Shown here one piece after another: positions 3,281 to 59,886 of a DNA stretch of 64,000 nt. The notes below the pieces were generated by a model. The model did no database searches, had not been told where the DNA came from, and saw only the letters and a program-made list of their open reading frames with translations. The stretch's first letter is position 1; the number at the start of each line of letters is the position of its first letter. The translations under genes and the position numbers were made by a program. The stretch is from Escherichia coli (GTDB lineage: Bacteria; Pseudomonadota; Gammaproteobacteria; Enterobacterales; Enterobacteriaceae): the NCBI RefSeq assembly GCF_041886205.1, contig NZ_CP169029.1; one strand, 5' to 3'.

Positions 3281-5081
3281 GTGCAAACCTTTCAAGCCGA
3301 TCTTGCCATTGTAGGCGCCGGTGGCGCGGGATTACGTGCTGCAATTGCTGCCGCGCAGGCAAATCCAAATGCAAAAATCGCACTAATCTCAAAAGTATAC
3401 CCGATGCGTAGCCATACCGTTGCTGCAGAAGGGGGCTCCGCCGCTGTCGCGCAGGATCATGACAGCTTCGAATATCACTTTCACGATACAGTAGCGGGTG
3501 GCGACTGGTTGTGTGAGCAGGATGTCGTGGATTATTTCGTCCACCACTGCCCCACCGAAATGACCCAACTGGAACTGTGGGGGTGCCCATGGAGCCGTCG
3601 CCCGGATGGTAGCGTCAACGTACGTCGCTTCGGCGGCATGAAAATCGAGCGTACCTGGTTCGCCGCCGATAAGACCGGCTTCCATATGCTGCACACGCTG
3701 TTCCAGACCTCTCTGCAATTCCCGCAGATCCAGCGTTTTGACGAACATTTCGTGCTGGATATTCTGGTTGATGATGGTCATGTTCGCGGCCTGGTAGCAA
3801 TGAACATGATGGAAGGCACGCTGGTGCAGATCCGTGCTAACGCGGTCGTTATGGCTACCGGCGGTGCGGGTCGCGTTTATCGTTACAACACCAACGGCGG
3901 CATCGTTACCGGTGACGGTATGGGTATGGCGCTAAGCCACGGCGTTCCGCTGCGTGACATGGAATTCGTTCAGTATCACCCAACCGGTCTGCCAGGTTCC
4001 GGTATCCTGATGACCGAAGGCTGCCGTGGTGAAGGCGGTATTCTGGTCAACAAAAATGGCTACCGTTATCTGCAAGATTACGGCATGGGCCCGGAAACTC
4101 CGCTGGGCGAGCCGAAAAACAAATATATGGAACTGGGTCCACGCGACAAAGTTTCTCAGGCCTTCTGGCACGAATGGCGTAAAGGCAACACCATCTCCAC
4201 GCCGCGTGGTGATGTGGTTTATCTCGACCTGCGTCACCTCGGCGAGAAAAAACTGCATGAACGTCTGCCGTTCATCTGCGAACTGGCGAAAGCGTACGTT
4301 GGCGTCGATCCGGTTAAAGAACCGATTCCGGTACGTCCGACCGCACACTACACCATGGGCGGTATCGAAACCGATCAGAACTGTGAAACCCGCATTAAAG
4401 GTCTGTTCGCCGTGGGTGAATGTTCCTCTGTTGGTCTGCACGGTGCAAACCGTCTGGGTTCTAACTCCCTGGCGGAACTGGTGGTCTTCGGCCGTCTGGC
4501 CGGTGAACAAGCGACAGAGCGTGCAGCAACTGCCGGTAATGGCAACGAAGCGGCAATTGAAGCGCAGGCAGCTGGCGTTGAACAACGTCTGAAAGATCTG
4601 GTTAACCAGGATGGCGGCGAAAACTGGGCGAAGATCCGCGACGAAATGGGTCTGGCTATGGAAGAAGGCTGCGGTATCTACCGTACGCCGGAACTGATGC
4701 AGAAAACCATCGACAAGCTGGCAGAGCTGCAGGAACGCTTCAAGCGCGTGCGCATCACCGACACTTCCAGCGTGTTCAACACCGACCTGCTCTACACCAT
4801 TGAACTGGGCCACGGTCTGAACGTTGCTGAATGTATGGCACACTCCGCAATGGCACGTAAAGAGTCCCGCGGCGCACACCAGCGTCTGGACGAAGGTTGC
4901 ACCGAGCGTGACGACGTCAACTTCCTCAAACACACCCTCGCCTTCCGCGATGCTGATGGCACGACTCGCCTGGAGTACAGCGACGTGAAGATTACTACGC
5001 TGCCGCCAGCTAAACGCGTTTACGGTGGCGAAGCGGATGCAGTCGATAAGGCGGAAGCAGCCAATAAGAAGGAGAAGGCGA

Positions 5082-5089
<8 letters not shown>
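3281..5089 (+). CDS. frdA: fumarate reductase flavoprotein subunit
   Basis: 602-aa ORF, GTG start; N-terminal FAD-binding GxGxxG ([12 protein letters not shown]). Confidence 0.97.
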
Positions 5090-6222
<1,133 letters not shown>

Positions 6223-6232
6223 GGAGCCTGAG

Positions 6233-7788
<1,556 letters not shown>

Positions 7789-8739: not shown

Positions 8740-8790
8740 ATTGGGGCCGTCCCCGGTGAAAAGACGCGTTTGCAGGTCGTCCTGCAAAGC
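8740..8790 (-). promoter_or_regulatory. guanidine-II (mini-ykkC) riboswitch in gdx 5' leader
   Basis: two hairpins with ACGR tetraloops on the mRNA strand: GCAGG-ACGA-CCTGC (8772-8785) and GGGG-ACGG-CCCC (8743-8754), just upstream of a GGAG SD and the gdx ATG. Confidence 0.7.
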
Positions 8791-16454: not shown

Positions 16455-16931
16455 TTAATCCTGGCGATCGTCTTTATGATCAAGGCGGTCGCGCTCATCA
16501 TCCTTTCGCTGGTACTCACCATCAAAAGTATTACCGCCACCGGTCCCGGCGCTAAAACCGCCGCCTGGCATACGAGAAAAGCGCAAATGCGGCATCAACT
16601 TCACTGTCAGATGCTTTTGCACCGGCGGTAATAAAAGCAGAAGACCGAGGAAGTCGGTGAAAAAGCCCGGTAATAAAAGCAGCAAACCGGCAATGATCAG
16701 CGAAACACTTTTAATCATCTCCGCCGCTGGGTTTTCACCCGCCGCCATTTTTTGCTGCATCAGCACGAAATTCTTAAAGCCCTGGTTACGTACCAGTGAC
16801 ATCCCGATAACTGACGTGAATATAACCAGCACGAGGGTCAGCAATACCCCCAATACATGGGCAACCTGAATAAAGATTGAAATCTCAATATAGACATAAA
16901 GGAAAATGGCAATAAAAGGTAACCAGCGCAA
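16455..16931 (-). CDS. fxsA: inner-membrane protein FxsA
   Basis: 158-aa ORF; hydrophobic N-terminus, acidic/basic C-tail; synteny. Confidence 0.9.
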   Translation of the reverse strand: MRWLPFIAIFLYVYIEISIFIQVAHVLGVLLTLVLVIFTSVIGMSLVRNQGFKNFVLMQQKMAAGENPAAEMIKSVSLIIAGLLLLLPGFFTDFLGLLLLLPPVQKHLTVKLMPHLRFSRMPGGGFSAGTGGGNTFDGEYQRKDDERDRLDHKDDRQD

Positions 16932-17267
16932 AGGTTTCTCCTGTAATAGCAGCCGGTAAAACCCGGCTACCTGAATGGGTTGCGAATCGCGTTCAGCTTA
17001 TATTGTGGTCATTAGCAAAATTTCAAGATGTTTGCGCAACTATTTTTGGTAGTAATCCCAAAGCGGTGATCTATTTCACAAATTAATAATTAAGGGGTAA
17101 AAACCGACACTTAAAGTGATCCAGATTACGGTAGAAATCCTCAAGCAGCATATGATCTCGGGTATTCGGTCGATGCAGGGGATAATCGTCGGTCGAAAAA
17201 CATTCGAAACCACATATATTCTGTGTGTTTAAAGCAAATCATTGGCAGCTTGAAAAAGAAGGTTCAC

Positions 17268-18704
17268 ATGTCAAACAACATTCGTATCGAAGAAGATCTG
17301 TTGGGTACCAGGGAAGTTCCAGCTGATGCCTACTATGGTGTTCACACTCTGAGAGCGATTGAAAACTTCTATATCAGCAACAACAAAATCAGTGATATTC
17401 CTGAATTTGTTCGCGGTATGGTAATGGTTAAAAAAGCCGCAGCTATGGCAAACAAAGAGCTGCAAACCATTCCTAAAAGTGTAGCGAATGCCATCATTGC
17501 CGCATGTGATGAAGTCCTGAACAACGGAAAATGCATGGATCAGTTCCCGGTAGACGTCTACCAGGGCGGCGCAGGTACTTCCGTAAACATGAACACCAAC
17601 GAAGTGCTGGCCAATATCGGTCTGGAACTGATGGGTCACCAGAAAGGTGAATATCAGTACCTGAACCCGAACGACCATGTTAACAAATGTCAGTCCACTA
17701 ACGACGCCTACCCGACCGGTTTCCGTATCGCAGTTTACTCTTCCCTGATTAAGCTGGTAGATGCGATTAACCAACTGCGTGAAGGCTTTGAACGTAAAGC
17801 TGTCGAATTCCAGGACATCCTGAAAATGGGTCGTACCCAGCTGCAGGACGCAGTACCGATGACCCTCGGTCAGGAATTCCGCGCTTTCAGCATCCTGCTG
17901 AAAGAAGAAGTGAAAAATATCCAACGTACCGCTGAACTGCTGCTGGAAGTTAACCTTGGCGCAACAGCAATCGGTACTGGTCTGAACACGCCGAAAGAGT
18001 ACTCTCCGCTGGCAGTGAAAAAACTGGCTGAAGTCACTGGCTTCCCATGCGTACCGGCTGAAGACCTGATCGAAGCGACCTCTGACTGCGGCGCTTATGT
18101 TATGGTTCACGGCGCGCTGAAACGCCTGGCTGTGAAGATGTCCAAAATCTGTAACGACCTGCGCTTGCTCTCTTCTGGTCCACGTGCCGGCCTGAACGAG
18201 ATCAACCTGCCGGAACTGCAGGCGGGCTCTTCCATCATGCCAGCTAAAGTAAACCCGGTTGTTCCGGAAGTGGTTAACCAGGTATGCTTCAAAGTCATCG
18301 GTAACGACACCACTGTTACCATGGCAGCAGAAGCAGGTCAGCTGCAGTTGAACGTTATGGAGCCGGTCATTGGCCAGGCTATGTTCGAATCCGTTCACAT
18401 TCTGACCAACGCTTGCTACAACCTGCTGGAAAAATGCATTAACGGCATCACTGCTAACAAAGAAGTGTGCGAAGGTTACGTTTACAACTCTATCGGTATC
18501 GTTACTTACCTGAACCCGTTCATCGGTCACCACAACGGTGACATCGTGGGTAAAATCTGTGCCGAAACCGGTAAGAGTGTACGTGAAGTCGTTCTGGAAC
18601 GCGGTCTGTTGACTGAAGCGGAACTTGACGATATTTTCTCCGTACAGAATCTGATGCACCCGGCTTACAAAGCAAAACGCTATACTGATGAAAGCGAACA
18701 GTAA
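17268..18704 (+). CDS. aspA: aspartate ammonia-lyase
   Basis: 478 aa from [13 protein letters not shown]...; fumarase/aspartase signature [10 protein letters not shown]. Confidence 0.97.
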
Positions 18705-18728
18705 TCGTACAGGGTAGTACAAATAAAG

Positions 18729-18758
18729 AAGGCACGTCAGATGACGTGCCTTTTTTCT
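18729..18758 (+). terminator. aspA rho-independent terminator
   Basis: hairpin AAGGCACGTCAG-ATG-ACGTGCCTT followed by TTTTTTCTT. Confidence 0.85.
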
Positions 18759-18821
18759 TGTGAGCAGTAACTTAAAAACAACAATCTAATATCAACTTGT
18801 TAAAAAACAAGGAAGGCTAAT

Positions 18822-20123
18822 ATGCTAGTTGTAGAACTCATCATAGTTTTGCTGGCGATCTTCTTGGGCGCCAGATTGGGGGGAATAGGTATTGGTTTTG
18901 CAGGCGGATTGGGGGTGCTGGTTCTTGCCGCTATTGGCGTTAAACCCGGTAACATCCCGTTCGATGTCATTTCCATTATCATGGCGGTTATCGCCGCTAT
19001 TTCTGCCATGCAGGTTGCTGGCGGTCTGGACTATCTGGTTCATCAGACAGAAAAGCTGCTGCGCCGTAACCCGAAATACATCACGATCCTCGCACCTATC
19101 GTGACCTATTTCCTGACAATCTTTGCTGGTACTGGCAACATCTCTCTGGCGACACTGCCAGTTATCGCTGAAGTTGCGAAGGAACAAGGCGTTAAACCTT
19201 GCCGTCCGCTGTCTACTGCAGTGGTATCCGCGCAGATTGCGATCACCGCATCGCCAATCTCAGCGGCAGTGGTTTACATGTCTTCCGTGATGGAAGGTCA
19301 TGGCATCAGCTACCTCCATCTGCTCTCCGTGGTCATCCCGTCCACCCTGCTGGCGGTTCTGGTGATGTCCTTTCTGGTCACTATGCTGTTCAACTCCAAA
19401 CTCTCTGACGATCCGATTTATCGCAAGCGTCTGGAAGAGGGCTTGGTTGAACTGCGCGGTGAAAAGCAGATTGAAATCAAATCCGGTGCAAAAACGTCCG
19501 TTTGGCTGTTCCTGCTGGGCGTAGTTGGCGTGGTTATCTATGCAATCATCAACAGCCCAAGCATGGGTCTGGTTGAAAAACCGCTGATGAACACCACCAA
19601 CGCAATCCTGATCATCATGCTCAGCGTTGCAACTCTGACCACCGTTATCTGTAAAGTCGATACCGACAACATCCTCAACTCCAGCACCTTCAAAGCAGGT
19701 ATGAGCGCCTGTATTTGTATCCTGGGTGTTGCGTGGCTGGGCGATACTTTCGTTTCCAACAACATCGACTGGATCAAAGATACCGCTGGTGAAGTGATTC
19801 AGGGTCATCCGTGGCTGCTGGCCGTCATCTTCTTCTTTGCTTCTGCTCTGCTGTACTCTCAGGCTGCAACCGCAAAAGCACTGATGCCGATGGCTCTGGC
19901 ACTGAACGTTTCTCCGCTGACCGCTGTTGCTTCTTTCGCTGCGGTGTCTGGTCTGTTCATTCTGCCGACCTATCCGACGCTGGTTGCTGCGGTACAGATG
20001 GATGACACGGGTACTACCCGTATCGGTAAATTCGTCTTCAACCATCCGTTCTTCATCCCGGGTACTCTGGGTGTTGCCCTGGCCGTTTGCTTCGGCTTCG
20101 TGCTGGGTAGCTTCATGCTGTAA
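18822..20123 (+). CDS. dcuA: anaerobic C4-dicarboxylate transporter DcuA
   Basis: 433-aa polytopic membrane ORF; synteny after aspA. Confidence 0.95.
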   Translation: MLVVELIIVLLAIFLGARLGGIGIGFAGGLGVLVLAAIGVKPGNIPFDVISIIMAVIAAISAMQVAGGLDYLVHQTEKLLRRNPKYITILAPIVTYFLTIFAGTGNISLATLPVIAEVAKEQGVKPCRPLSTAVVSAQIAITASPISAAVVYMSSVMEGHGISYLHLLSVVIPSTLLAVLVMSFLVTMLFNSKLSDDPIYRKRLEEGLVELRGEKQIEIKSGAKTSVWLFLLGVVGVVIYAIINSPSMGLVEKPLMNTTNAILIIMLSVATLTTVICKVDTDNILNSSTFKAGMSACICILGVAWLGDTFVSNNIDWIKDTAGEVIQGHPWLLAVIFFFASALLYSQAATAKALMPMALALNVSPLTAVASFAAVSGLFILPTYPTLVAAVQMDDTGTTRIGKFVFNHPFFIPGTLGVALAVCFGFVLGSFML

Positions 20124-22968: not shown

Positions 22969-23044
22969 GCCCGGATAGCTCAGTCGGTAGAGCAGGGGAT
23001 TGAAAATCCCCGTGTCCTTGGTTCGATTCCGAGTCCGGGCACCA
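22969..23044 (+). tRNA. pheU: tRNA-Phe (GAA anticodon)
   Basis: GCCCGGATAGCTCAGTCGGTAGAGCAGGGGATTGAAAATCCCCGTGTCCTTGGTTCGATTCCGAGTCCGGGCACCA; called pheU rather than pheV from yjdC flank. Confidence 0.97.
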
Positions 23045-23056
23045 AATTCATATCAA

Positions 23057-23082
23057 CGGACCTCCACGGAGGTCCGTTTTTC
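23057..23082 (+). terminator. tRNA-Phe terminator hairpin
   Basis: CGGACCTCC-ac-GGAGGTCCG followed by TTTTTCG. Confidence 0.8.
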
Positions 23083-23241
23083 GTTTCAGAACGCCACAAT
23101 TTAAGCGTTCTACCTACAAATCAATTCTACCGAACTCAACCAGATTCCCCCCACATCAACCCCATTGTGTGGGTATAATTGCGGGCATACCCCAGTTCGA
23201 CAGAATTTGTACCCTCTTTAACGCATTCAGAAGGCTATACT

Positions 23242-24504
23242 ATGGCACTGACTGACGCAAAAATCCGGGCTGCAAAGCCCACTGACAAGGCTTATAAACT
23301 CACTGACGGGGCTGGCATGTTCCTACTGGTTCATCCTAATGGTTCCCGTTACTGGCGTCTCCGTTATCGTATTCTGGGTAAGGAGAAGACTCTGGCACTT
23401 GGTGTGTATCCAGAAGTTTCTCTCTCCGAAGCTCGTACAAAACGGGATGAGGCCCGAAAACTGATTTCGGAGGGGATTGACCCTTGCGAACTGAAAAGAG
23501 CTAAAAAAGTAGTCCCTGATTTACAACTCTCTTTTGAACATATTGCACGACGCTGGCATGCCAGTAATAAACAATGGGCACAATCACACAGCGATAAAGT
23601 ACTCAAAAGCCTCGAGACACACGTTTTCCCCTTTATCGGCAACCGGGATATCACAACACTCAGTACCCCGGACCTGCTTATCCCTGTTCGTGCTGCAGAA
23701 GCTAAACAAATTTATGAAATCGCCAGTCGTCTGCAGCAAAGAATATCTGCTGTAATGCGTTATGCCGTACAGTCTGGCATCATCAGATATAACCCGGCTC
23801 TGGATATGGCTGGTGCATTGACCACGGTAAAACGCCAGCATCGCCCTGCACTGGATCTTTCACGCCTGCCTGAACTTCTGTCGCGTATTGACGGTTATAA
23901 AGGCCAGCCTGTCACCCGACTGGCAGTTATGCTGAATTTACTGGTTTTTATTCGTTCCAGTGAACTCAGATACGCCCGCTGGTCTGAAATTGATATTGAC
24001 AATGCCATGTGGACTATTCCAGCCGAACGCGAACCTCTGCCTGGCGTAAAATTCTCACACCGGGGCTCCAAGATGCGAACACCACATCTTGTGCCACTCA
24101 GCAAACAGGCTGTAGCCATACTGGCAGAACTACAGACATGGGCTGGTGAAAATGGTCTGATCTTTACGGGAGCACATGACCCGCGTAAACCAATCAGTGA
24201 AAATACTGTAAATAAAGCCCTGAGGGTGATGGGGTATGACACAACCCAGGATGTCTGTGGCCATGGATTCCGGGCGATGGCGTGCAGTGCATTGATTGAA
24301 TCAGGTTTGTGGTCCCGCGATGCTGTGGAACGTCAGATGAGCCATCAGGAGCGTAATGGTGTACGTGCTGCGTATATCCATAAAGCAGAACATCTGGAAG
24401 AACGGCGACTGATGTTGCAATGGTGGGCCGATTTTCTGGATGCGAACCGGGAGAAGGGTATCAGTCCGTTTGAATATGCAAAAATTAACAATCCATTAAA
24501 ATAG
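23242..24504 (+). CDS. P4-family tyrosine integrase, tRNA-Phe associated
   Basis: 441-aa ORF, about 420-aa product from MALTDAKIRAAKPTDKAYKLTDGAG; C-terminal catalytic HGFR ... AAYIH (H-x-x-R / Tyr); immediately 3' of tRNA. Confidence 0.88.
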   Translation: MALTDAKIRAAKPTDKAYKLTDGAGMFLLVHPNGSRYWRLRYRILGKEKTLALGVYPEVSLSEARTKRDEARKLISEGIDPCELKRAKKVVPDLQLSFEHIARRWHASNKQWAQSHSDKVLKSLETHVFPFIGNRDITTLSTPDLLIPVRAAEAKQIYEIASRLQQRISAVMRYAVQSGIIRYNPALDMAGALTTVKRQHRPALDLSRLPELLSRIDGYKGQPVTRLAVMLNLLVFIRSSELRYARWSEIDIDNAMWTIPAEREPLPGVKFSHRGSKMRTPHLVPLSKQAVAILAELQTWAGENGLIFTGAHDPRKPISENTVNKALRVMGYDTTQDVCGHGFRAMACSALIESGLWSRDAVERQMSHQERNGVRAAYIHKAEHLEERRLMLQWWADFLDANREKGISPFEYAKINNPLK

Positions 24505-24590
24505 TAAGCAGTCCGGGCAATCAGCCCGGACTGCTGGTGATGCTGCCAACTTACTGATTTAGTGTATGATGGTGTTTTTGAGGTGCTCCA

Positions 24591-24866
24591 GTGGCTTCTG
24601 TTTCTATCAGCTGTCCCTCCTGTTCAGCTACTGACGGGGTGGTACGTAACGGCAAAAGCACCGCCGGACATCAGCGCTATCTCTGCTCTCACTGCCGTAA
24701 AACATGGCAACTGCAGTTCACTTACACCGCTTCTCAACCCGGTACGCACCAGAAAATCATTGATATGGCCATGAATGGCGTTGGATGCCGGGCAACTGCC
24801 CGCATTATGGGCGTTGGCCTCAACACGATTTTACGTCACTTAAAAAACTCAGGCCGCAGTCGGTAA
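24591..24866 (+). CDS. insA: IS1 InsA
   Basis: 91-aa [20 protein letters not shown]...; zinc-finger/HTH protein of IS1. Confidence 0.95.
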
Positions 24867-25288
24867 CCTCGCGCATACAGCCGGGCAGTGACGTCATCGT
24901 CTGCGCGGAAATGGACGAACAGTGGGGCTATGTCGGGGCTAAATCGCGCCAGCGCTGGCTGTTTTACGCGTATGACAGGCTCCGGAAGACGGTTGTTGCG
25001 CACGTATTCGGTGAACGCACTATGGCGACGCTGGAGCGTCTTCTGGGCCTGCTGTCGGCCTTTGAGGTCGTGGTATGGATGACGGATGGCTGGCCGCTTT
25101 ATGAATCACGCCTGAAGGGAGAACTGCACGTTATCAGCAAGCGATATACGCAGCGCATTGAGCGGCATAACCTGAATCTGAGGCAGCATCTGGCAAGGCT
25201 GGGCAGGAAGTCACTGTCGTTCTCAAAATCGGTGGAGCTGCATGACAAAGTTATCGGGCATTATCTGAACATAAAACACTATCAATAA
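24785..25288 (+). CDS. insB: IS1 InsB (expressed as InsAB' transposase by -1 frameshift)
   Basis: 167-aa ORF in -1 frame relative to insA; matches IS1 InsB. Confidence 0.9.
24840..24848 (+). promoter_or_regulatory. IS1 programmed -1 ribosomal frameshift site (TTAAAAAAC)
   Basis: A6C slippery run at the insA/insB overlap. Confidence 0.8.
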
Positions 25289-25354
25289 GTTGGAGTCATT
25301 ACCCGCTTTGCTTTAGCGAGAACTGGTCTTTTATTCGCACTCAGGAGTACATGT

Positions 25355-26116
25355 ATGAGGATTTGCAGCGACCAACCTTGTATTGTTTTATTGACTGAAA
25401 AAGATGTCTGGATAAGGGTGAATGGGAAAGAACCTATTAGCCTTAAAGCTAACCATATGGCGTTATTAAATTGTGAAAATAATATTATCGACGTCTCCTC
25501 TCTTAACAACACTTTGGTTGCTCATATTAGTCACGACATCATCAAAGATTACCTCCGGTTTCTGAATAAAGATCTCTCGCAAATACCAGTATGGCAACGT
25601 AGCGCTACGCCCATACTCACCCTGCCATGCCTGACGCCAGACGTCTTTCGCGTTGCCGCGCAACACAGCATGATGCCCGCAGAAACTGAGTCAGAAAAGG
25701 AACGAACACGCGCATTATTATTCACGGTGCTATCCCGTTTTCTCGACAGTAAAAAATTCGTTTCATTAATGATGTATATGTTACGTAATTGTGTAAGTGA
25801 CAGCGTTTATCAAATTATTGAAAGCGATATTCACAAAGACTGGAATCTTAGTATGGTAGCCAGTTGTTTATGTCTTAGCCCAAGTCTGTTAAAGAAAAAG
25901 TTGAAAAGCGAAAACACCAGTTATAGCCAAATAATCACCACCTGCCGCATGCGTTATGCCGTAAATGAATTAATGATGGACGGTAAAAATATCTCTCAGG
26001 TATCACAGTCCTGCGGCTACAACAGTACGTCGTACTTTATTTCTGTCTTTAAAGACTTCTACGGTATGACGCCGCTGCATTATGTTAGTCAGCACAGAGA
26101 ACGCACTGTCGCCTGA
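25355..26116 (+). CDS. adiY: AraC-family regulator AdiY
   Basis: 253-aa ORF; C-terminal AraC HTH; immediately upstream of adiC. Confidence 0.92.
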   Translation: MRICSDQPCIVLLTEKDVWIRVNGKEPISLKANHMALLNCENNIIDVSSLNNTLVAHISHDIIKDYLRFLNKDLSQIPVWQRSATPILTLPCLTPDVFRVAAQHSMMPAETESEKERTRALLFTVLSRFLDSKKFVSLMMYMLRNCVSDSVYQIIESDIHKDWNLSMVASCLCLSPSLLKKKLKSENTSYSQIITTCRMRYAVNELMMDGKNISQVSQSCGYNSTSYFISVFKDFYGMTPLHYVSQHRERTVA

Positions 26117-26252: not shown

Positions 26253-27590
26253 ATGTCTTCGGATGCTGATGCTCACAAAGTGGGCTTAATCCCCGTCACC
26301 CTGATGGTGTCGGGGAATATTATGGGGTCAGGTGTTTTTCTGTTACCTGCAAACCTGGCCTCTACTGGCGGGATTGCCATTTATGGATGGTTGGTGACGA
26401 TTATCGGTGCACTGGGGCTCTCGATGGTATACGCCAAAATGTCGTTCCTCGACCCAAGTCCTGGTGGTTCTTACGCTTACGCCCGCCGCTGCTTTGGCCC
26501 GTTTCTCGGTTATCAAACCAACGTCCTCTACTGGCTGGCCTGCTGGATCGGCAATATCGCCATGGTGGTCATTGGCGTAGGATATTTAAGTTACTTCTTC
26601 CCGATTCTGAAAGATCCATTGGTATTAACCATCACCTGCGTCGTGGTGCTGTGGATCTTCGTCCTGCTGAACATTGTCGGTCCGAAAATGATCACCCGTG
26701 TGCAGGCAGTTGCCACCGTGCTGGCGCTGATCCCCATCGTCGGGATTGCCGTATTTGGCTGGTTCTGGTTCCGTGGTGAAACCTATATGGCGGCATGGAA
26801 CGTCAGCGGCCTGGGCACCTTCGGTGCAATTCAAAGTACCCTTAACGTTACGCTGTGGTCGTTCATCGGTGTGGAAAGTGCCTCCGTTGCCGCAGGTGTG
26901 GTGAAAAACCCGAAACGCAATGTCCCTATCGCCACCATTGGTGGGGTATTGATTGCCGCCGTTTGCTATGTACTTTCTACCACCGCGATTATGGGGATGA
27001 TCCCTAATGCCGCACTGCGCGTTTCTGCTTCGCCATTCGGTGATGCCGCACGGATGGCGTTGGGTGACACCGCCGGGGCCATTGTTTCCTTCTGCGCAGC
27101 TGCGGGTTGCTTAGGTTCACTGGGCGGCTGGACGTTGCTGGCGGGTCAAACGGCGAAAGCCGCTGCCGATGACGGACTGTTCCCACCGATTTTTGCCCGT
27201 GTAAATAAAGCGGGTACGCCAGTGGCGGGGCTGATTATCGTCGGTATTTTGATGACCATCTTCCAGCTCAGCAGCATTTCACCAAACGCGACCAAAGAGT
27301 TCGGTCTGGTTTCTTCCGTCTCGGTCATCTTTACACTGGTGCCATATCTTTACACCTGTGCGGCGTTACTGCTGCTCGGACACGGTCACTTTGGTAAAGC
27401 ACGCCCGGCATATCTGGCAGTTACTACCATTGCCTTCCTCTACTGCATCTGGGCCGTGGTGGGGTCCGGAGCGAAAGAGGTTATGTGGTCATTTGTCACC
27501 CTGATGGTCATCACCGCCATGTATGCGCTGAATTACAACCGGCTACATAAAAACCCGTATCCCTTAGATGCACCAATAAGCAAAGATTAA
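26253..27590 (+). CDS. adiC: arginine:agmatine antiporter AdiC
   Basis: 445-aa APC-family transporter ORF. Confidence 0.95.
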
Positions 27591-30011: not shown

Positions 30012-31103
30012 ATGCGTTTTCTGCGCCGACCAATATCGCTGCGCCAACGGCTGATATTGACCATCGGGGCCATTTTGTTGGTGTTTGAGCTGATCAGCGT
30101 CTTCTGGCTATGGCATGAAAGTACCGAGCAGATTCAGCTGTTTGAGCAGGCGCTACGCGACAATCGCAACAACGATCGCCACATCATGCGTGAGATCCGC
30201 GAGGCGGTCGCCAGCCTGATTGTCCCCGGCGTCTTTATGGTCAGCCTGACGCTATTTATCTGCTATCAGGCGGTACGCCGCATCACCCGCCCGCTGGCGG
30301 AGCTGCAAAAAGAGCTGGAAGCGCGCACCGCCGACAACTTAACGCCCATTGCCATTCACAGCGCCACCCTCGAAATCGAAGCGGTGGTTTCGGCGTTAAA
30401 CGATCTGGTCAGTCGCCTGACCAGCACGCTGGATAACGAAAGGTTGTTTACCGCTGACGTCGCGCACGAACTGCGAACGCCACTGGCGGGGGTGCGTTTG
30501 CATCTGGAACTGCTGGCGAAAACGCATCACATTGATGTAGCACCGTTAGTGGCACGGCTTGATCAGATGATGGAGAGCGTCTCCCAGCTGCTGCAACTGG
30601 CGCGTGCCGGACAGTCATTTTCTTCCGGTAATTATCAACATGTAAAACTGCTGGAAGATGTCATTCTCCCCTCGTATGACGAACTCAGTACCATGCTCGA
30701 CCAGCGACAGCAAACCCTGCTATTGCCAGAGAGCGCCGCCGACATCACCGTTCAGGGTGATGCAACCCTGCTGCGGATGTTATTGCGAAACCTGGTAGAA
30801 AACGCCCATCGTTACAGCCCGCAAGGCAGCAACATTATGATTAAGCTGCAAGAAGATGACGGAGCGGTCATGGCAGTTGAAGATGAAGGACCAGGTATTG
30901 ATGAGAGTAAATGCGGGGAGTTGAGTAAAGCGTTTGTACGTATGGACAGCCGTTATGGCGGGATTGGTCTGGGGTTAAGTATTGTCAGCCGCATTACACA
31001 GTTGCATCACGGGCAGTTTTTCCTGCAAAACCGGCAAGAGACTTCCGGCACGCGGGCCTGGGTACGGCTGAAGAAAGATCAGTACGTGGCAAACCAGATA
31101 TAA
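30012..31103 (+). CDS. basS: sensor histidine kinase BasS (PmrB)
   Basis: about 363 aa from MRFLRRPISLRQR...; H-box ADVAHELRTP; ATPase domain. Confidence 0.95.
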   Translation: MRFLRRPISLRQRLILTIGAILLVFELISVFWLWHESTEQIQLFEQALRDNRNNDRHIMREIREAVASLIVPGVFMVSLTLFICYQAVRRITRPLAELQKELEARTADNLTPIAIHSATLEIEAVVSALNDLVSRLTSTLDNERLFTADVAHELRTPLAGVRLHLELLAKTHHIDVAPLVARLDQMMESVSQLLQLARAGQSFSSGNYQHVKLLEDVILPSYDELSTMLDQRQQTLLLPESAADITVQGDATLLRMLLRNLVENAHRYSPQGSNIMIKLQEDDGAVMAVEDEGPGIDESKCGELSKAFVRMDSRYGGIGLGLSIVSRITQLHHGQFFLQNRQETSGTRAWVRLKKDQYVANQI

Positions 31104-31168
31104 AGAAAGCTGCTGACCACCAGCACGCTGAACACGGTAGTTAAACTTTCATAAACACGGTTTTTCAT
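31079..31168 (-). CDS. pmrR: small membrane protein PmrR
   Basis: 29-aa ORF MKNRVYESLTTVFSVLVVSSFLYIWFATY, hand-translated, antisense and overlapping the basS 3' end. Confidence 0.75.
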   Translation of the reverse strand: MKNRVYESLTTVFSVLVVSSFLYIWFATY

Positions 31169-31279
31169 TGCACTCTCCTCCGTTAACCTGGAGGAGAGTA
31201 TGCGCGTCAGAGATTAAGTGAACCTTAAGAGTTCAATTGGCCTGATAAGACAGCGTCACATCAGGCCATCCGTTTCAGC

Positions 31280-36899: not shown

Positions 36900-37082
<183 letters not shown>

Positions 37083-39550: not shown

Positions 39551-39640
39551 CGTAGGTCGGATAAGACGCCCCGGCGTCGCATCCGACAATGTGCAGGCGT
39601 TGATGCCGGATGCGGTGCAAGCACCTTATCCGGCCTACAG
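39551..39640. repeat. REP units between phnD and phnE
   Basis: GTAGGTCGGATAAGACGC...GCATCCGACA and GCCGGATGCGG...CTTATCCGGCCTAC. Confidence 0.85.
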
Positions 39641-48540: not shown

Positions 48541-48660
48541 AATGTGCGCGCTGGCCCCCTCACCCTAACCCTCTCCCCAGAGGGGCGAGGGGACCGATTG
48601 TGCTCGATATTGAATATTGCGCTCGTTTTCTCCCTCTCCCCATTGGGGTGAGGGGCGATG
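48541..48660. repeat. paired G/C-rich palindromic intergenic repeats (BoxC-like)
   Basis: two copies of CCCTC(A/T)CCC...GGGG(C/T)GAGGGG-type imperfect palindromes; family name uncertain. Confidence 0.4.
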
Positions 48661-48678
48661 CCTGCTCCATACCCAACC

Positions 48679-49008
48679 TCATCGCCCATACTCATCTTCC
48701 ATTCTCCGCTCTTCATCCTCCAGTTGCCGACGCTCCTGATCAAGCTGGCGCTGGCGATCGTCCAGCTGCCTGCGGCGATCTTCAAACTGGCGGCGGCGGT
48801 CGTCATATTGTCTGCGCCGATCGTCGCTCACTTCACGCTGCCAGCCGTCGTCGCGCGAATCTTCATAGTCTCGCCCACGGTCAGGGTTATAAGCGTCATT
48901 AATCGCCTGCTGAATATTGCCAATGGTGTCGTCGATAATATCGGCCTGGGCCGGAACGGTGGACAGCGTGAGCAGGGTGAATAAAAGAAATAGCGGAAAG
49001 CGTTTCAT
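48679..49008 (-). CDS. yjdP: secreted low-complexity protein YjdP
   Basis: 109 aa; signal peptide MKRFPLFLLFTLLTLSTVPAQA followed by D/E/R/Q-rich repeats. Confidence 0.8.
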   Translation of the reverse strand: MKRFPLFLLFTLLTLSTVPAQADIIDDTIGNIQQAINDAYNPDRGRDYEDSRDDGWQREVSDDRRRQYDDRRRQFEDRRRQLDDRQRQLDQERRQLEDEERRMEDEYGR

Positions 49009-49076
49009 TAGCCAACCTCAAAAAGAAACTCTATCCACATTAATCATTACTCATCCATGCAAGTAGTGGATGAATC

Positions 49077-49394
49077 TCAATTTCTCCGCTGCTCTATTGC
49101 CGTAATCGCCTCCACGCGTTGTTGATGACGACCGCCTTCGTACTGTGCGCCCAGCCACGCATCCACAATCATTTTTGCCAGTTCGAGGCCAACCACTCGT
49201 GAACCAAAAGCCAGTGCAACTTCACTGGCGTAATGCGGATAATCAGTGCGCTCTGACGACCTGGTTTCTTTATCAATCCCCTCACTCATTGACCATGAAT
49301 AAAAGGCTGGCACAGCAACACAGAATCCTGCGGTGCCAGCGACATGACCGCCCATTGCTCCGGTACGTTTTTTAATAAAAAACACCGGTTGCAT
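49077..49394 (-). pseudogene. rpiB: rpiB-like remnant (ribose-5-phosphate isomerase B fragment)
   Basis: 105-aa ORF; C-terminal about 60 aa (SSERTDYPHYAS...FGSRVVGLELAKMIVDAWLGAQYEGGRHQQRVEAITAIEQRRN) match my recollection of RpiB; the catalytic-loop segment is missing and the N-terminal 40 aa are unrelated. Confidence 0.6.
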
Positions 49395-49646
49395 TGATTA
49401 ATTGTGCTCAGTATTTGCCGAAGTACAATATATATAATAAATATATAAAACACCTCATATTATTTACAGAGATAATAAATTCGCGTACTTTTCCCTCTTC
49501 AGCACAAATGCCTAATAAAATGGCGCGTTCAGCTCACACTTCCACTTATTAAAGTCGCAATTTCCCAATTATGATAACGCCAGCTTTAAATGACGTATTT
49601 TGCATGGATTACATATTTACGACATAAATGATAAATGGAGATTTAT

Positions 49647-51632
49647 ATGAATAACTCTCGGTTATTCCGTTTGAGCAGGATTGTTATTGCGTTAACTGCC
49701 GCCAGCGGCATGATGGTAAATACCGCTAACGCGAAAGAGGAAGCGAAAGCCGCCACTCAATATACCCAACAGGTTAATCAGAATTACGCCAAATCATTAC
49801 CGTTTAGCGATCGTCAGGATTTTGACGATGCCCAGCGTGGATTTATCGCCCCGCTGCTGGATGAAGGTATTCTGCGTGATGCGAACGGTAAAGTTTACTA
49901 CCGCGCGGACGATTACAAATTTGATATTAATGCCGCAGCGCCGGAAACCGTAAACCCCAGCCTGTGGCGTCAGTCGCAAATCAACGGTATTTCTGGCCTG
50001 TTCAAAGTCACCGATAAAATGTATCAGGTGCGCGGCCAGGATATCTCTAACATTACGTTCGTTGAGGGCGAGAAAGGCATTATTGTTATTGACCCACTGG
50101 TGACGCCACCTGCCGCAAAAGCCGCACTTGACCTTTACTTCCAGCATCGTCCGCATAAACCGATTGTTGCCGTTATCTACACTCACAGCCACACTGACCA
50201 CTATGGTGGCGTGAAAGGTATTATCTCTGAAGCCGATGTTAAATCCGGCAAAGTTCAGGTGATTGCCCCTGCAGGCTTTATGGACGAAGCCATCAGCGAA
50301 AACGTGCTGGCGGGTAACATCATGAGCCGCCGTGCGCTCTACTCTTACGGTCTGTTACTGCCGCACAACGCGCAAGGCAACGTGGGTAATGGCCTTGGCG
50401 TGACGCTGGCAACGGGCGACCCGAGCATTATTGCACCGACTAAAACTATCGTCAGAACTGGCGAGAAGATGATTATTGACGGCCTGGAGTTTGACTTCCT
50501 GATGACCCCAGGTAGCGAAGCGCCAGCCGAAATGCACTTCTATATTCCGGCCCTGAAAGCCCTGTGTACCGCCGAGAACGCCACGCATACCCTACACAAC
50601 TTCTACACTCTGCGCGGCGCGAAAACCCGCGATACCAGCAAGTGGACCGAGTACCTGAACGAAACGCTGGATATGTGGGGTAACGACGCGGAAGTCCTGT
50701 TTATGCCGCACACCTGGCCGGTCTGGGGCAATAAGCATATCAATGATTATATTGGTAAATATCGCGATACTATCAAGTACATTCACGACCAGACCCTGCA
50801 CCTGGCGAACCAGGGCTACACCATGAATGAAATCAGCGACATGATTAAGCTGCCGCCTGCACTTGCCAATAACTGGGCCAGCCGTGGCTATTACGGTTCT
50901 GTCAGCCACAACGCCCGCGCGGTGTATAACTTCTATCTTGGCTATTACGACGGTAACCCGGCTAACCTGCATCCGTATGGTCAGGTGGAGATGGGTAAAC
51001 GTTACGTGCAGGCGCTGGGCGGTTCTGCCCGTGTCATCAACCTAGCGCAAGAAGCGAACAAGCAAGGTGATTACCGCTGGTCGGCAGAACTGCTGAAACA
51101 GGTGATTGCCGCCAACCCGGGTGACCAGGTCGCGAAGAATCTGCAAGCGAATAACTTTGAACAGCTGGGCTATCAGGCCGAATCCGCCACCTGGCGCGGT
51201 TTCTACCTGACCGGCGCGAAAGAGCTGCGCGAAGGGGTGCATAAGTTCAGCCACGGCACCACCGGTTCCCCGGACACCATTCGCGGGATGTCGGTCGAAA
51301 TGCTGTTCGACTTTATGTCCGTTCGCCTCGATAGCGCGAAAGCCGCGGGTAAAAATATCAGCCTGAACTTCAATATGAGCAATGGCGATAACCTCAACCT
51401 GACGCTGAACGATAGCGTGCTTAACTACCGTAAAACACTGCAATCCCAAGCTGACGCCTCTTTCTACATCAGCCGTGAAGATCTGCACGCCGTGCTAACC
51501 GGGCAAGCCAAAATGGCGGATCTGGTAAAAGCGAAGAAAGCCAAAATTATTGGCAATGGCGCGAAACTGGAAGAAATTATCGCCTGTCTGGATAATTTCG
51601 ATTTGTGGGTGAATATCGTAACCCCAAATTAA
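49647..51632 (+). CDS. yjcS: putative alkyl/aryl sulfatase YjcS (metallo-beta-lactamase plus SCP2-like domains)
   Basis: 661 aa from [13 protein letters not shown]...; signal peptide; HSHTDH metal motif. Confidence 0.9.
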
Positions 51633-51840
51633 TGTCACTCGCTTTTGGGGGCGCTGAAGCCCCCAAAAGCATTTATTTTAAAAATATATACAGCCAATTA
51701 ATAAATAAAATATATAAGTTATGAATGCGGTGGCTGAATAAAGCTATTTTTATTCATCGAGAAAATAGCCATACTGACGCCTTCAATGGATATTGATATT
51801 CACTACAGATATTGTTCGCAGCAGACAGGATGTATTTAAT

Positions 51841-52116
51841 ATGCCAACAGTTCTCTCTCGCATGGCGATGCAACTCAAAAAAACAGCCTGGATAATTCCC
51901 GTCTTCATGGTTTCGGGATGCTCATTATCTCCGGCAATCCCGGTGATCGGTGCTTATTATCCCAGCTGGTTTTTCTGCGCCATTGCCAGCCTTATTTTGA
52001 TGCTCATCACGAGGCGAGTTATTCAGCGGGCAAATATCAATCTGGCATTTGTCGGAATTATTTATACCGCCCTTTTTGCTCTCTACGCCATGCTGTTCTG
52101 GCTGGCATTTTTCTAA
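51841..52116 (+). CDS. ytcA: small lipoprotein YtcA
   Basis: 91 aa from MPTVLSRMAMQLKK...; lipobox MVSGC; immediately upstream of mdtN. Confidence 0.8.
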   Translation: MPTVLSRMAMQLKKTAWIIPVFMVSGCSLSPAIPVIGAYYPSWFFCAIASLILMLITRRVIQRANINLAFVGIIYTALFALYAMLFWLAFF

Positions 52117-52134
52117 TCTATTTGAGACGCGCTC

Positions 52135-53166
52135 ATGGAAAGTACGCCGAAAAAAGCTCCTCGCAGTAAATTCCCTGCTCTGTTAGTGGTTGCGTTGGCG
52201 CTGGTTGCCCTTGTTTTCGTTATCTGGCGCGTAGACAGTGCGCCATCAACTAATGACGCTTACGCGTCAGCAGATACCATTGATGTGGTGCCGGAAGTCA
52301 GCGGTCGCATTGTAGAACTGGCGGTCACCGACAACCAGGCGGTGAAACAGGGCGATTTGCTGTTCCGCATCGACCCGCGCCCGTACGAAGCCAACCTGGC
52401 GAAAGCCGAAGCCTCCCTCGCGGCGCTGGATAAGCAAATTATGCTCACCCAGCGTAGCGTTGACGCCCAACAGTTTGGTGCCGACTCGGTTAATGCCACG
52501 GTAGAAAAAGCCCGTGCCGCCGCTAAACAGGCCACAGATACATTACGCCGCACCGAGCCATTACTGAAAGAAGGTTTTGTCTCAGCGGAAGACGTTGACC
52601 GTGCGAGGACCGCGCAGCGCGCTGCAGAAGCCGATCTTAATGCCGTATTGTTACAGGCGCAGTCAGCCGCCAGCGCCGTCAGCGGCGTCGATGCGCTGGT
52701 GGCGCAACGTGCGGCGGTCGAAGCGGATATTGCCCTGACCAAACTTCATCTGGAAATGGCGACCGTACGCGCGCCGTTTGATGGCCGGATCATTTCCCTC
52801 AAAACCTCCGTCGGGCAATTTGCTTCTGCCATGCGCCCTATTTTTACCCTAATCGACACTCGTCACTGGTACGTGATCGCCAACTTCCGCGAAACCGATC
52901 TGAAAAATATTCGCTCAGGTACACCCGCAACGATTCGCCTGATGAGTGACAGCGGCAAAACCTTCGAGGGTAAAGTGGATTCGATTGGCTACGGCGTGCT
53001 ACCGGATGATGGCGGCCTGGTGCTGGGCGGCCTGCCGAAAGTTTCTCGTTCTATTAACTGGGTCCGCGTTGCCCAGCGTTTTCCGGTCAAAATCATGGTC
53101 AATAAACCTGACCCGGAAATGTTCCGCATCGGCGCTTCGGCAGTCGCTAATCTTGAGCCGCAATAA
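52135..53166 (+). CDS. mdtN: multidrug efflux membrane-fusion protein MdtN
   Basis: 343 aa; HlyD/EmrA-like; single N-terminal TM. Confidence 0.93.
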   Translation: MESTPKKAPRSKFPALLVVALALVALVFVIWRVDSAPSTNDAYASADTIDVVPEVSGRIVELAVTDNQAVKQGDLLFRIDPRPYEANLAKAEASLAALDKQIMLTQRSVDAQQFGADSVNATVEKARAAAKQATDTLRRTEPLLKEGFVSAEDVDRARTAQRAAEADLNAVLLQAQSAASAVSGVDALVAQRAAVEADIALTKLHLEMATVRAPFDGRIISLKTSVGQFASAMRPIFTLIDTRHWYVIANFRETDLKNIRSGTPATIRLMSDSGKTFEGKVDSIGYGVLPDDGGLVLGGLPKVSRSINWVRVAQRFPVKIMVNKPDPEMFRIGASAVANLEPQ

Positions 53167-55217
53167 TGAGCGCGCTCAACTCCCTGCCATTACCGGTGGT
53201 CAGGCTGCTGGCGTTCTTTCATGAAGAGTTAAGCGAGCGGCGACCAGGTCGCGTGCCGCAGACCGTGCAACTCTGGGTAGGCTGCCTGCTGGTGATTCTG
53301 ATCTCGATGACTTTTGAGATCCCTTTTGTGGCGTTATCGCTGGCAGTGCTGTTTTACGGTATTCAGTCGAACGCGTTTTACACCAAATTTGTCGCGATCT
53401 TGTTTGTGGTTGCCACGGTGCTGGAGATCGGCAGCCTGTTTTTGATCTACAAATGGTCATACGGCGAACCGTTGATCCGATTGATCATCGCCGGGCCGAT
53501 CCTGATGGGCTGCATGTTTTTGATGCGCACCCATCGCTTGGGGCTGGTCTTTTTCGCCGTCGCCATTGTCGCTATTTACGGGCAAACCTTCCCCGCCATG
53601 CTCGACTATCCGGAAGTGGTCGTGCGCTTAACGCTGTGGTGTATCGTTGTTGGCCTCTATCCAACCTTGCTGATGACGTTAATCGGCGTGCTGTGGTTTC
53701 CCAGTCGTGCCATTTCGCAAATGCATCAGGCGCTTAATGATCGGCTTGATGATGCCATTAGTCACCTGACAGACAGCCTCGCACCGCTACCCGAAACGCG
53801 GATTGAAAGAGAGGCGCTGGCGCTGCAAAAACTCAATGTCTTTTGCCTCGCGGACGATGCCAACTGGCGAACTCAGAGCGCATGGTGGCAAAGCTGTGTG
53901 GCAACGGTAACCTACATTTACTCGACGCTGAATCGCTACGATCCCACCTCTTTTGCGGATTCTCAGGCAATTATTGAATTCCGACAAAAATTAGCCTCAG
54001 AAATCAACAAGCTGCAGCATGCCGTTGCTGAAGGTCAGTGCTGGCAAAGCGACTGGCGGATCAGTGAAAGTGAAGCGATGGCGGCACGGGAATGTAACCT
54101 GGAGAATATCTGCCAGACGTTGTTACAACTGGGTCAGATGGACCCGAATACGCCGCCAACGCCCGCAGCCAAACCGCCATCAATGGCCGCCGATGCTTTT
54201 ACCAATCCAGACTATATGCGCTACGCGGTAAAAACGCTGCTCGCCTGTTTGATCTGTTACACCTTTTACAGCGGCGTGGACTGGGAAGGCATTCACACCT
54301 GTATGCTGACATGCGTGATCGTCGCTAACCCAAATGTCGGTTCGTCGTACCAGAAGATGGTGCTGCGTTTTGGCGGGGCCTTTTGCGGCGCGATTCTGGC
54401 GCTGTTATTCACGCTACTGGTCATGCCTTGGCTGGACAATATTGTCGAATTGCTGTTTGTGCTGGCACCGATTTTCCTGTTGGGCGCATGGATTGCCACC
54501 AGCTCTGAACGCTCTTCTTATATCGGCACACAGATGGTGGTCACCTTCGCGCTCGCCACGCTCGAAAACGTTTTTGGCCCAGTGTACGACCTGGTGGAAA
54601 TTCGCGATCGCGCCCTGGGTATCATCATTGGTACCGTGGTGTCCGCGGTGATTTACACCTTTGTCTGGCCTGAAAGTGAAGCGCGCACACTGCCGCAAAA
54701 ACTGGCTGGCACGCTGGGTATGTTAAGTAAAGTAATGCGGATCCCACGCCAGCAGGAAGTCACGGCTCTGCGCACTTATCTGCAAATTCGTATCGGTCTG
54801 CATGCGGCGTTTAATGCCTGTGAAGAGATGTGCCAACGCGTGGCGCTGGAGCGTCAACTGGACAGCGAAGAACGCGCCTTACTGATTGAACGTTCGCAAA
54901 CGGTTATTCGTCAGGGCCGCGATATTCTTCACGCCTGGGATGCCACCTGGAACTCGGCGCAGGCGCTGGATAACGCACTACAGCCGGACAGAGCAGGTCA
55001 GTTTGCCGACGCCCTGGAGAAATACGCTGCCGGTCTGGCAACCGCACTCAGCCGTTCTCCTCAAATAACGCTTGAAGAGACACCCGCCTCGCAGGCCATC
55101 CTGCCCACCTTATTAAAACAGGAGCAACACGTCTGCCAGCTTTTCGCCCGCTTGCCAGACTGGACAGCCCCGGCATTAACGCCCGCCACGGAACAGGCAC
55201 AAGGAGCCACGCAATGA
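53166..55217 (+). CDS. mdtO: multidrug efflux inner-membrane component MdtO
   Basis: 683 aa; polytopic; start overlaps mdtN stop. Confidence 0.93.
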   Translation: MSALNSLPLPVVRLLAFFHEELSERRPGRVPQTVQLWVGCLLVILISMTFEIPFVALSLAVLFYGIQSNAFYTKFVAILFVVATVLEIGSLFLIYKWSYGEPLIRLIIAGPILMGCMFLMRTHRLGLVFFAVAIVAIYGQTFPAMLDYPEVVVRLTLWCIVVGLYPTLLMTLIGVLWFPSRAISQMHQALNDRLDDAISHLTDSLAPLPETRIEREALALQKLNVFCLADDANWRTQSAWWQSCVATVTYIYSTLNRYDPTSFADSQAIIEFRQKLASEINKLQHAVAEGQCWQSDWRISESEAMAARECNLENICQTLLQLGQMDPNTPPTPAAKPPSMAADAFTNPDYMRYAVKTLLACLICYTFYSGVDWEGIHTCMLTCVIVANPNVGSSYQKMVLRFGGAFCGAILALLFTLLVMPWLDNIVELLFVLAPIFLLGAWIATSSERSSYIGTQMVVTFALATLENVFGPVYDLVEIRDRALGIIIGTVVSAVIYTFVWPESEARTLPQKLAGTLGMLSKVMRIPRQQEVTALRTYLQIRIGLHAAFNACEEMCQRVALERQLDSEERALLIERSQTVIRQGRDILHAWDATWNSAQALDNALQPDRAGQFADALEKYAAGLATALSRSPQITLEETPASQAILPTLLKQEQHVCQLFARLPDWTAPALTPATEQAQGATQ

Positions 55218-56680: not shown

Positions 56681-56809
56681 AATGTCTGCCGCGTGATGGC
56701 TGTCACGCGGTATTTCGTTTCGTCACGTCAAAACTGACGACAGCCTGTTTTTCGTCAGAGTTTTGAATAAATAGTGCCCGTAATATCAGGGAATGACCCC
56801 AAATAAAAT

Positions 56810-56826
56810 GTGGCATAAAAGATGCA
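56810..56826 (+). promoter_or_regulatory. sigma-54 (-24/-12) promoter of fdhF
   Basis: TGGCATAAAAGATGCA: GG-N10-GC spacing; upstream TGTCACG / CGTCACG repeats consistent with an FhlA UAS. Confidence 0.7.
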
Positions 56827-56877
56827 TACTGTAGTCGAGAGCGCGTATGCGTGATTTGATTAACTGGAGCGAGACCG

Positions 56878-59025: not shown

Positions 59026-59118
59026 TACAGTCCTTTCTACAGCCTCCTTTCGGAGGCTGTTTTTTTATCCATTCGAACTCTTTATACTGGTTACTCCCTA
59101 CCCAATCGTATTATCAAA

Positions 59119-59808
59119 ATGAAAAAAATTATCGCATTGATGTTGTTTTTGACATTCTTTGCCCACGCCAACGACTCCGAGCCTGGCAGCCAGTATTTAA
59201 AGGCAGCAGAGGCCGGGGACCGACGCGCACAATATTTTCTTGCCGACAGCTGGTTTAGCTCCGGCGATTTGAGCAAAGCCGAATATTGGGCACAGAAAGC
59301 CGCCGACAGCGGTGATGCTGATGCCTGCGCGCTGTTGGCGCAGATCAAAATCACCAATCCGGTCAGTCTGGACTATCCACAAGCAAAAGTTCTTGCAGAG
59401 AAAGCGGCGCAAGCGGGCAGTAAAGAAGGTGAAGTAACGCTGGCGCATATTCTGGTAAATACTCAAGCGGGTAAACCGGATTATCCAAAGGCGATTTCGC
59501 TGTTAGAAAACGCCTCGGAAGATCTGGAGAACGACTCTGCCGTCGATGCCCAAATGCTGCTTGGTTTGATTTACGCCAACGGCGTGGGCATTAAGGCCGA
59601 CGATGACAAGGCAACCTGGTATTTCAAACGCAGCTCTGCAATTTCCCGAACCGGTTATTCCGAGTACTGGGCGGGAATGATGTTCTTAAACGGTGAAGAA
59701 GGTTTTATCGAGAAGAACAAGCAAAAGGCGCTGCACTGGTTGAACCTGAGCTGTATGGAAGGGTTTGATACCGGGTGTGAAGAGTTTGAAAAATTAACCA
59801 ACGGTTAA
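59119..59808 (+). CDS. yjcO: Sel1-repeat periplasmic protein YjcO
   Basis: 229 aa; signal peptide; repeated Sel1/TPR-like A-x-x-Y/W-x-x-K-A-A units. Confidence 0.88.
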   Translation: MKKIIALMLFLTFFAHANDSEPGSQYLKAAEAGDRRAQYFLADSWFSSGDLSKAEYWAQKAADSGDADACALLAQIKITNPVSLDYPQAKVLAEKAAQAGSKEGEVTLAHILVNTQAGKPDYPKAISLLENASEDLENDSAVDAQMLLGLIYANGVGIKADDDKATWYFKRSSAISRTGYSEYWAGMMFLNGEEGFIEKNKQKALHWLNLSCMEGFDTGCEEFEKLTNG

Positions 59809-59886
59809 GATAGGCCTGATAAGACGCGTTAAGCGTCGCATCAGGCATTCACACATTGCCGGGTGGATATCCCCGGCAATCTTCAA

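Follow-up and report, generated by a model that had tools for sequence, protein, structure and literature searches.

A stretch of 64,000 nucleotides from Escherichia coli (contig NZ_CP169029.1 of assembly GCF_041886205.1, hereafter the window) carries, between the tRNA-Phe gene pheU and adiY, a P4-type integrase gene and one complete copy of the insertion sequence (IS) IS1 in the place where K-12 has the chromosomal block from cadCBA to adiA. We read this arrangement as the result of the integration of an island at pheU followed by an IS1-mediated deletion of the island cargo, the right attachment site (attR) and the chromosomal block, a reading to which we give a probability of about 85%. The mechanism is an ordinary IS1-mediated deletion that reduced a newly acquired island to its integrase, and the locus is a fresh instance of a well-known type of event. 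The original prediction for this DNA, which was made from the sequence alone, had listed pheU, an intact integrase, a complete IS1 and adiY only 51 bp further on, and every one of these elements is in place; its structural reading, that an island had been cut down to an integrase and an IS1 and that cargo and attR had gone together with the chromosomal block, is supported by the comparisons described here. Coordinates are those of the window, and the features of the locus lie on the + strand, apart from a hairpin for which no strand is given.

The IS1 at the joint is 768 bp long (24536-25303) and is bounded by a left inverted repeat at 24536-24558 and a right inverted repeat at 25281-25303. 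It contains two open frames, insA (24591-24866) and the insB frame (24785-25288), and an A6C frameshift site at 24842-24848. The 9 bp to its left are CGGACTGCT and the 9 bp to its right are CGCTTTGCT; the two differ, so there is no target-site duplication and the element is not a simple insertion. The missing 9-bp duplication is expected if IS1 mediated a deletion. On its left the element abuts the final base of a hairpin with a 12-bp stem (24507-24535) located downstream of the integrase, and on its right it is followed by the final 51 bp of the intergenic region between adiA and adiY (25304-25354), which start with CGCTTTGCT at 25304-25312. The locus thus has a single IS at a novel joint, flanks that are colinear with the ancestral order, and a close relative of ancestral type which still carries the missing DNA; because a single IS1 sits at the joint without target duplication between colinear flanks, we consider the deletion to be IS-mediated.

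The relative of ancestral type is 6EVA, from healthy human faeces in Singapore, in which the interval from pheU to adiY measures 22,977 bp and has the K-12 gene order: pheU, a 160-bp integrase remnant, cadC, cadB, cadA, dtpC, lysU, ghoT, ghoS, yjdJ, yjdI, dcuS, dcuR, dcuB, fumB, yjdF, melA, melR, adiA and adiY. When this interval was compared with the window by blastn only four parts matched, and these are accounted for by similarity to the integrase remnant, the last 51 bp before adiY, and a match between the paralogues dcuB and dcuA. As had been predicted, cadCBA, dtpC, lysU, ghoST, yjdIJ, dcuSR, dcuB, fumB, yjdF, melRA and adiA are absent from the 64-kb window by this comparison. An alignment of the junction to K-12, which had been proposed as a check, places the absent DNA at 4,337,981-4,362,550 of MG1655, or 24.6 kb. 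The gene melB is missing in both wlxctx60 and 6EVA, where melA abuts yjdF (5234-7236 of locus L016 and 4904-6906 of locus L017), and in the enterotoxigenic E. coli (ETEC) strain TW11681 melB is split by an IS3. To judge from these gene orders, melB had gone from the lineage before the deletion, and the lineage was probably melibiose-negative beforehand.

The frequency of such losses was assessed in 5,426 complete genomes labelled E. coli, in which the presence of cadA and adiA was scored by megablast match; the collections searched hold no Shigella genomes. In 215 of these genomes (4.0%) cadA was undetectable, and loss of the gene is therefore not peculiar to Shigella or enteroinvasive E. coli (EIEC). 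By the same measure adiA is missing in 15 (0.3%), and the deletion is therefore unusual mainly for reaching adiA.

The flanks of the locus are those of a clone. The window has one tRNA detected by ARAGORN, a tRNA-Phe (GAA) at 22969-23044 which is also recognised by the Rfam tRNA model, and it can be identified as pheU because aspA, dcuA, cutA, dsbD and yjdC/dicD lie upstream of it. The DcuA protein is that of the common allele and gives no further resolution. Both flanks are 99.96-100% identical to those of two commensal E. coli, 6EVA and wlxctx60 (NZ_AP045833; bear faeces, Japan). Against wlxctx60 there are 3 single nucleotide polymorphisms (SNPs) in the left flank (1-23044) and 6 SNPs in the next 114 bp after the tRNA, and from 23159 onwards there is no homology; identity with wlxctx60 and 6EVA stops precisely at the 3' end of pheU. 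On the other side identity resumes at the first base past IS1, and 25304-50000 is 100.0% identical to both strains in one piece of 24,697 bp, while 48606-64000 has 1 mismatch to wlxctx60. The right flank is also 99.9% identical to several ETEC strains. The difference from the close relatives is consequently confined to the interval between the end of the tRNA and the end of IS1. Both flanks are colinear with K-12 in orientation, as a deletion leaves them and an inversion would not. The near-identity of the flanks to 6EVA and wlxctx60, together with the retention of the whole K-12 block in 6EVA, indicates a recent event, with no sign of imported flanking DNA.

Since clonal identity ends at the 3' end of the tRNA, foreign DNA begins there, as site-specific integration predicts. 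The break in the backbone at this point fits site-specific integration at the 3' end of pheU, which is the side of the left attachment site (attL), and not an import of flanking DNA. The foreign segment starts with a non-coding island left end (23045-23241) that includes the pheU terminator hairpin at 23055-23078; over its first 114 bp it matches the old K-12-type remnant locus at 94.7% identity, and beyond them homology to that locus stops. The only island gene remaining is an intact P4-type tyrosine integrase of 420 aa (23242-24504), whose ATG at 23242, inside the open reading frame 23179-24504, lies 198 bp past the end of pheU and on the same strand as the tRNA. A residue-identical integrase is found on at least 20 public contigs, which carry either full islands or contig ends. 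Precomputed Pfam domains of the identical protein are Arm-DNA-bind_3, Phage_int_M and Phage_integrase; PF13356 and PF22022 cover its N-terminal arm-type DNA-binding domain (Arm-DNA-bind_3 / DUF4102) and PF00589 its C-terminal catalytic domain. The catalytic R...HxxR...Y residues are visible in the translation (...FIRSSELR..., HGFR and ...SHQERNGVRAAYIH). Against the NCBIfam model PRK09692 the protein scores 248.5 bits (E=9e-74, residues 3-403), below the model cut-off of 434; it is a clear relative of PRK09692 that falls outside that model's narrow subfamily.

The parent islands of this stub can be recognised in unrelated E. coli. Over 23045-24535 the window matches, at 100% DNA identity, the left ends of islands at pheU or pheV (loci L003-L010 and L019, the last from strain ZYB39), and the intact islands continue ...CGGACTGCT|TTAACTGATT into cargo at the very point where the window has IS1. 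The cargo of the parent islands includes a 1,171-aa AAA/PLD protein, a phosphoethanolamine transferase and an outer-membrane protein; in ZYB39 the cargo exceeds 45 kb, with CBASS and many IS elements. The same integrase and island left end lie beside pheV (after speC and yqgA) in some strains and beside pheU in others (loci L004, L008, L009 and L011). Because the identical integrase adjoins one or the other gene depending on the strain, this family of islands appears to use both tRNA-Phe genes. In the window itself a second copy of the tRNA 3' end of at least 12 nt was not found on either strand, in agreement with the earlier remark that no attR was noticed. With neither attR nor cargo, what is left is a stub and not an island in which attL and attR bracket cargo. 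In the ETEC strain TW11681 the order is island, degenerate attR (CGATTCCGAGTCCGG-CACCA), the 114-bp segment, the integrase remnant and cadC, a layout which shows the intermediate expected for a pheU island in this backbone.

The other endpoint of the deletion has been hit by IS1 elsewhere. In strains KFu022 and TOE3 an IS1 is inserted in the same orientation at the same 9-bp site upstream of adiY, with a clean duplication of CGCTTTGCT and with adiA intact. STIN_95, too, has an intact adiA and an IS1 of this orientation, and it shares the right junction apart from one SNP in the 9-mer. These elements lie at about 6275-7060 in locus L013, 6278-7063 in L015 and 6287-7063 in L014. The IS1 copies of the three strains are three different sequence variants, and the copy in the window is a fourth. 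Four further genomes have an IS1 82-318 bp farther upstream of this site. On account of the repeated use of the same 9-bp site in other strains and the nearby IS1 in four more, the adiY-side endpoint is a preferred IS1 target and looks like a genuine hot spot. An adiY-side precursor insertion is thus observed in three genomes.

Near the integrase-side endpoint IS1 is also frequent. Twelve complete genomes have an IS1 within about 50 bp of the site used in the window, in L73 one lies 22 bp upstream of it, and a draft contig ends at that point. IS1 elements have repeatedly been found within or beside the hairpin that follows this integrase family (24505-24535 in the window, 7606-7615 in locus L001 and the contig end of locus L012), and a few hundred bp downstream of the integrase in 042, O104:H4 and several ETEC or avian strains. 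L73 was considered as a smaller version of the same deletion and was ruled out, the cargo next to its IS1 being unlike that of a ZYB39-type island. The exact left junction of the window has no match in the JGI metagenomes, the GTDB representatives or the 5,426 complete E. coli.

From these observations we propose the following history. The ancestor would have had the layout of 6EVA, with pheU, the decayed integrase remnant, cadCBA through adiA, and adiY. A P4-type island would then have integrated site-specifically at the 3' end of pheU, giving the order pheU, integrase, cargo, attR, remnant and cadC onward. In a second step a single IS1-mediated deletion would have fused two points, one 31 bp past the stop codon of the integrase and the other 51 bp before adiY. 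It would have cost the genome about 23-25 kb of chromosome together with the old remnant, attR and the cargo of the island, and one IS1 would have remained at the joint. Two routes could lead to this outcome: an IS1 at one of the sites may have transposed intramolecularly into the other, which would be an adjacent deletion of the classical IS1 kind, or homologous recombination may have taken place between IS1 copies that occupied both sites in direct orientation. The window fits both routes alike. The anatomy of the locus, the missing target duplication, the clonal flanks, the family of parent islands and the recurrent IS1 target at adiY are shown directly, and we infer the order of events and the sub-mechanism of the deletion.

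Several points weigh against this history. An IS1 at the exact integrase-side site, in the form of either the left junction of the window or the predicted duplicated right junction, is absent from the 5,426 genomes, so that the precursor insertion on this side is hypothetical. The IS1 of the window has no identical copy among these genomes (the nearest is 99.2% identical, and two private changes, read as synonymous, make up part of the 0.8% gap), and it is a mosaic, IS1A-like at its positions 444-492 and of the type seen in loci L021-L023 from 500 up to the 3' end, by which recombination between two IS1 copies is neither proved nor ruled out. Related IS1 copies show comparable small patches. 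Mosaicism was therefore rejected as a means of deciding between IS1 x IS1 recombination and intramolecular transposition, IS1 copies being mosaic in general. Finally, the physical loss of the block from the genome is something that we infer.

Other explanations for the joint have to be weighed against this history. The assembler could have collapsed a pair of IS1 copies in direct orientation, of which the first follows the integrase and the second precedes adiY, and the island and chromosomal block between them could have been misplaced or dropped. A collapsed IS1 pair would yield exactly this sequence, and there are real genomes in which adiA-IS1-adiY has this same right junction; the window, however, runs uninterrupted for 64 kb through IS1 and is otherwise base-perfect against finished relatives, as is more usual in assemblies that are finished or built from long reads, in which a repeat of 768 bp is spanned, and no known genome has an IS1 at the integrase-side site. 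We regard such an artefact as improbable. Slightly less probable still is that the block was excised as an IS1-bounded circle or composite carrying cad to adiA and re-inserted elsewhere in the chromosome or in a plasmid. Both deletion routes release a circle able to carry an IS1 copy, and plasmids in the E. coli collection have matches to cadA and to adiA in 3 places each, but a circle of this kind without a replication origin is normally lost, and the window, in which adiY and adiC stayed where they were, gives no sign of re-insertion. A second copy of TTCGATTCCGAGTCCGGGCACCA elsewhere in the assembly would be a candidate relocated attR. The original prediction held that the window alone cannot distinguish loss from relocation, and we agree. 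The least probable of the alternatives is that the whole arrangement from pheU through integrase and IS1 to adiY was imported ready-made by homologous recombination in the flanks. Regions adjacent to tRNA-borne islands are generally recombination hot spots in E. coli; against an import stand the absence of SNPs both from the 3.5 kb before pheU and from the 1.3 kb that follow IS1, the near-100% identity of the right flank to the clone-mates over the next 24.7 kb, and the lack of any donor with this junction in the same complete E. coli genomes, JGI metagenomes and GTDB representatives.

The framing that the original prediction had implied, that this is a pathoadaptive 'black hole' of a Shigella or EIEC strain in which the deletion was selected since cadaverine hinders virulence, is not supported, and although it comes somewhat ahead of the three alternatives above we consider it unlikely. 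It draws on the absence of cadCBA and on the position of the deletion, a cad deletion beside pheU being the classical Shigella pattern (Maurelli 1998 and Day 2001, as cited in PMC4156367 and PMC5723341). The sister strain wlxctx60 has lost cadCBA independently, which could hint at selection or merely at a fragile locus. The backbone, however, is clonal with commensals and 99.9% identical to ETEC and not to Shigella, the 64-kb window has a single IS element, 4% of complete E. coli genomes lack cadA, and wlxctx60 was obtained from a wild bear, which is not a setting of invasive disease. EIEC strains usually keep the K-12 order in this region and have an inactivated cadC (PMC5723341). S. flexneri, moreover, expresses adiA, adiY, yjdE (adiC) and fumB, deletion of cad induces its arginine system, and the arginine acid-resistance system is thought to help Shigella (PMC4229854). 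Retention of arginine-dependent acid resistance through adiA is reported for Shigella and EIEC alike. Shigella thus keeps and expresses genes of which adiA and fumB are deleted here, and the deletion does not match the described pathoadaptive pattern because it takes these two; so few E. coli genomes lacking adiA also speak against the idea. The idea that S. flexneri lacks adiA is contradicted by PMC4229854 and was dropped.

The independent loss in wlxctx60 (16633-18830 of locus L016) comprises cadCBA and the 5' part of dtpC, with lysU through adiA kept, and came about through a divergent IS1-family element inserted in the old K-12-type integrase remnant beside pheU. It resembles the event in the window in that the same clone lost cad via an IS1-family element next to this tRNA, and differs from it in that the element sits in the old remnant and the loss extends only to cadCBA and the 5' end of dtpC. 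The non-pathogenic E. coli MRE600 has likewise been published as lacking cadA, along with ompT, in a paper that does not describe the junction (PMC4825418).

The deletion can also be set beside several better known systems. SHI-3 is an island of E. coli and Shigella borne at pheU or pheV. The cadA-region black holes of Shigella spp. were reportedly described by Maurelli and colleagues in 1998 and Day and colleagues in 2001, and the window shares with them the loss of cadCBA beside pheU, the presence of IS and of phage or island integrase DNA at the joints, and the lysine decarboxylase-negative outcome, which here is predicted. It differs from them in that the host is an ordinary E. coli clonal with commensals and that adiA, fumB, dcuB and dcuSR are gone as well. 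Adjacent deletions promoted by IS1 and recombination between IS1 copies are said to go back to Reif and Saedler in 1975 and later work; as in these, one IS1 lies exactly at the joint between colinear flanks, without a 9-bp duplication, and an endpoint is a preferred target. The mechanism is the same, and what is particular here is that the deletion spans the boundary between island and chromosome and takes attR. Like yjdQ of K-12, a decayed P4-like integrase remnant beside pheU, the stub has the same tRNA target and integrase family and is what remains of an island whose decay left integrase-derived DNA only, whereas its integrase is full length and 100% identical to that of living islands and was cut off by one recent IS1 event and not by slow erosion.

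On the right of the joint adiY (25355-26116) is intact, its DNA being 100% identical to that of wlxctx60, in which it is annotated as intact AdiY, and it is followed by an intact adiC (26253-27590), the arginine/agmatine antiporter, which has been left without its decarboxylase partner adiA. The deletion has severed adiY from all sequence more than 51 bp upstream of its start codon. A promoter scan of these 51 bp gave no consensus sigma-70 promoter, a result that says little either way. Elsewhere in the window, the stretch from yjdP/phnP to yjcS (about 48606-49635) lacks the allose operon (rpiR-alsBACEK) and has a truncated rpiB; this loss is shared with wlxctx60 and is a trait of the lineage that is unlinked to the event at pheU. 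Matches to Rfam include a guanidine-II riboswitch at 8742-8788 on the - strand, the small RNA STnc630 directly downstream of basS/pmrB, three naRNA4 (REP-type) elements near yjdM and within the phn operon, and a SECIS element in the fdhF region; the positions of matches other than the riboswitch are 31072-31237, 36903-37079, 39555-39635 and 57290-57344.

If the genes are lost, the isolate is predicted to be lysine decarboxylase negative and to have no inducible arginine decarboxylase, with adiY and adiC orphaned, so that glutamate-dependent acid resistance would be the only amino-acid-dependent system left; it is also predicted to have no DcuSR, DcuB or FumB. These predicted traits could make the isolate look Shigella-like in biochemical typing. 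The case cautions against taking every cad deletion for a pathoadaptation, and no link of the present deletion to virulence can be shown.

What is mildly interesting beyond the single locus is the repeated insertion of IS1 at one 9-bp site and the independent loss of cadCBA in wlxctx60. Two of three near-identical strains have lost cad independently via different elements, and at least four insertions, involving four IS1 variants, have hit the CGCTTTGCT site. It is conceivable, though we hold it to be doubtful, that the pheU-adiY interval is under repeated and possibly selected erosion by the IS1 family and that CGCTTTGCT is a true sequence- and orientation-specific hot spot. In that case strains outside the Shigella/EIEC pathovar would have lost cad and adi convergently, as an adaptive trait, and an IS1 at CGCTTTGCT may rewire the expression of adiY and adiC. 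In the history that we favour, the window would provide a clean natural case in which an IS1 beside a tRNA-borne island removes the island and a block of the core chromosome in one step, with a clone-mate that preserves the state before the event.

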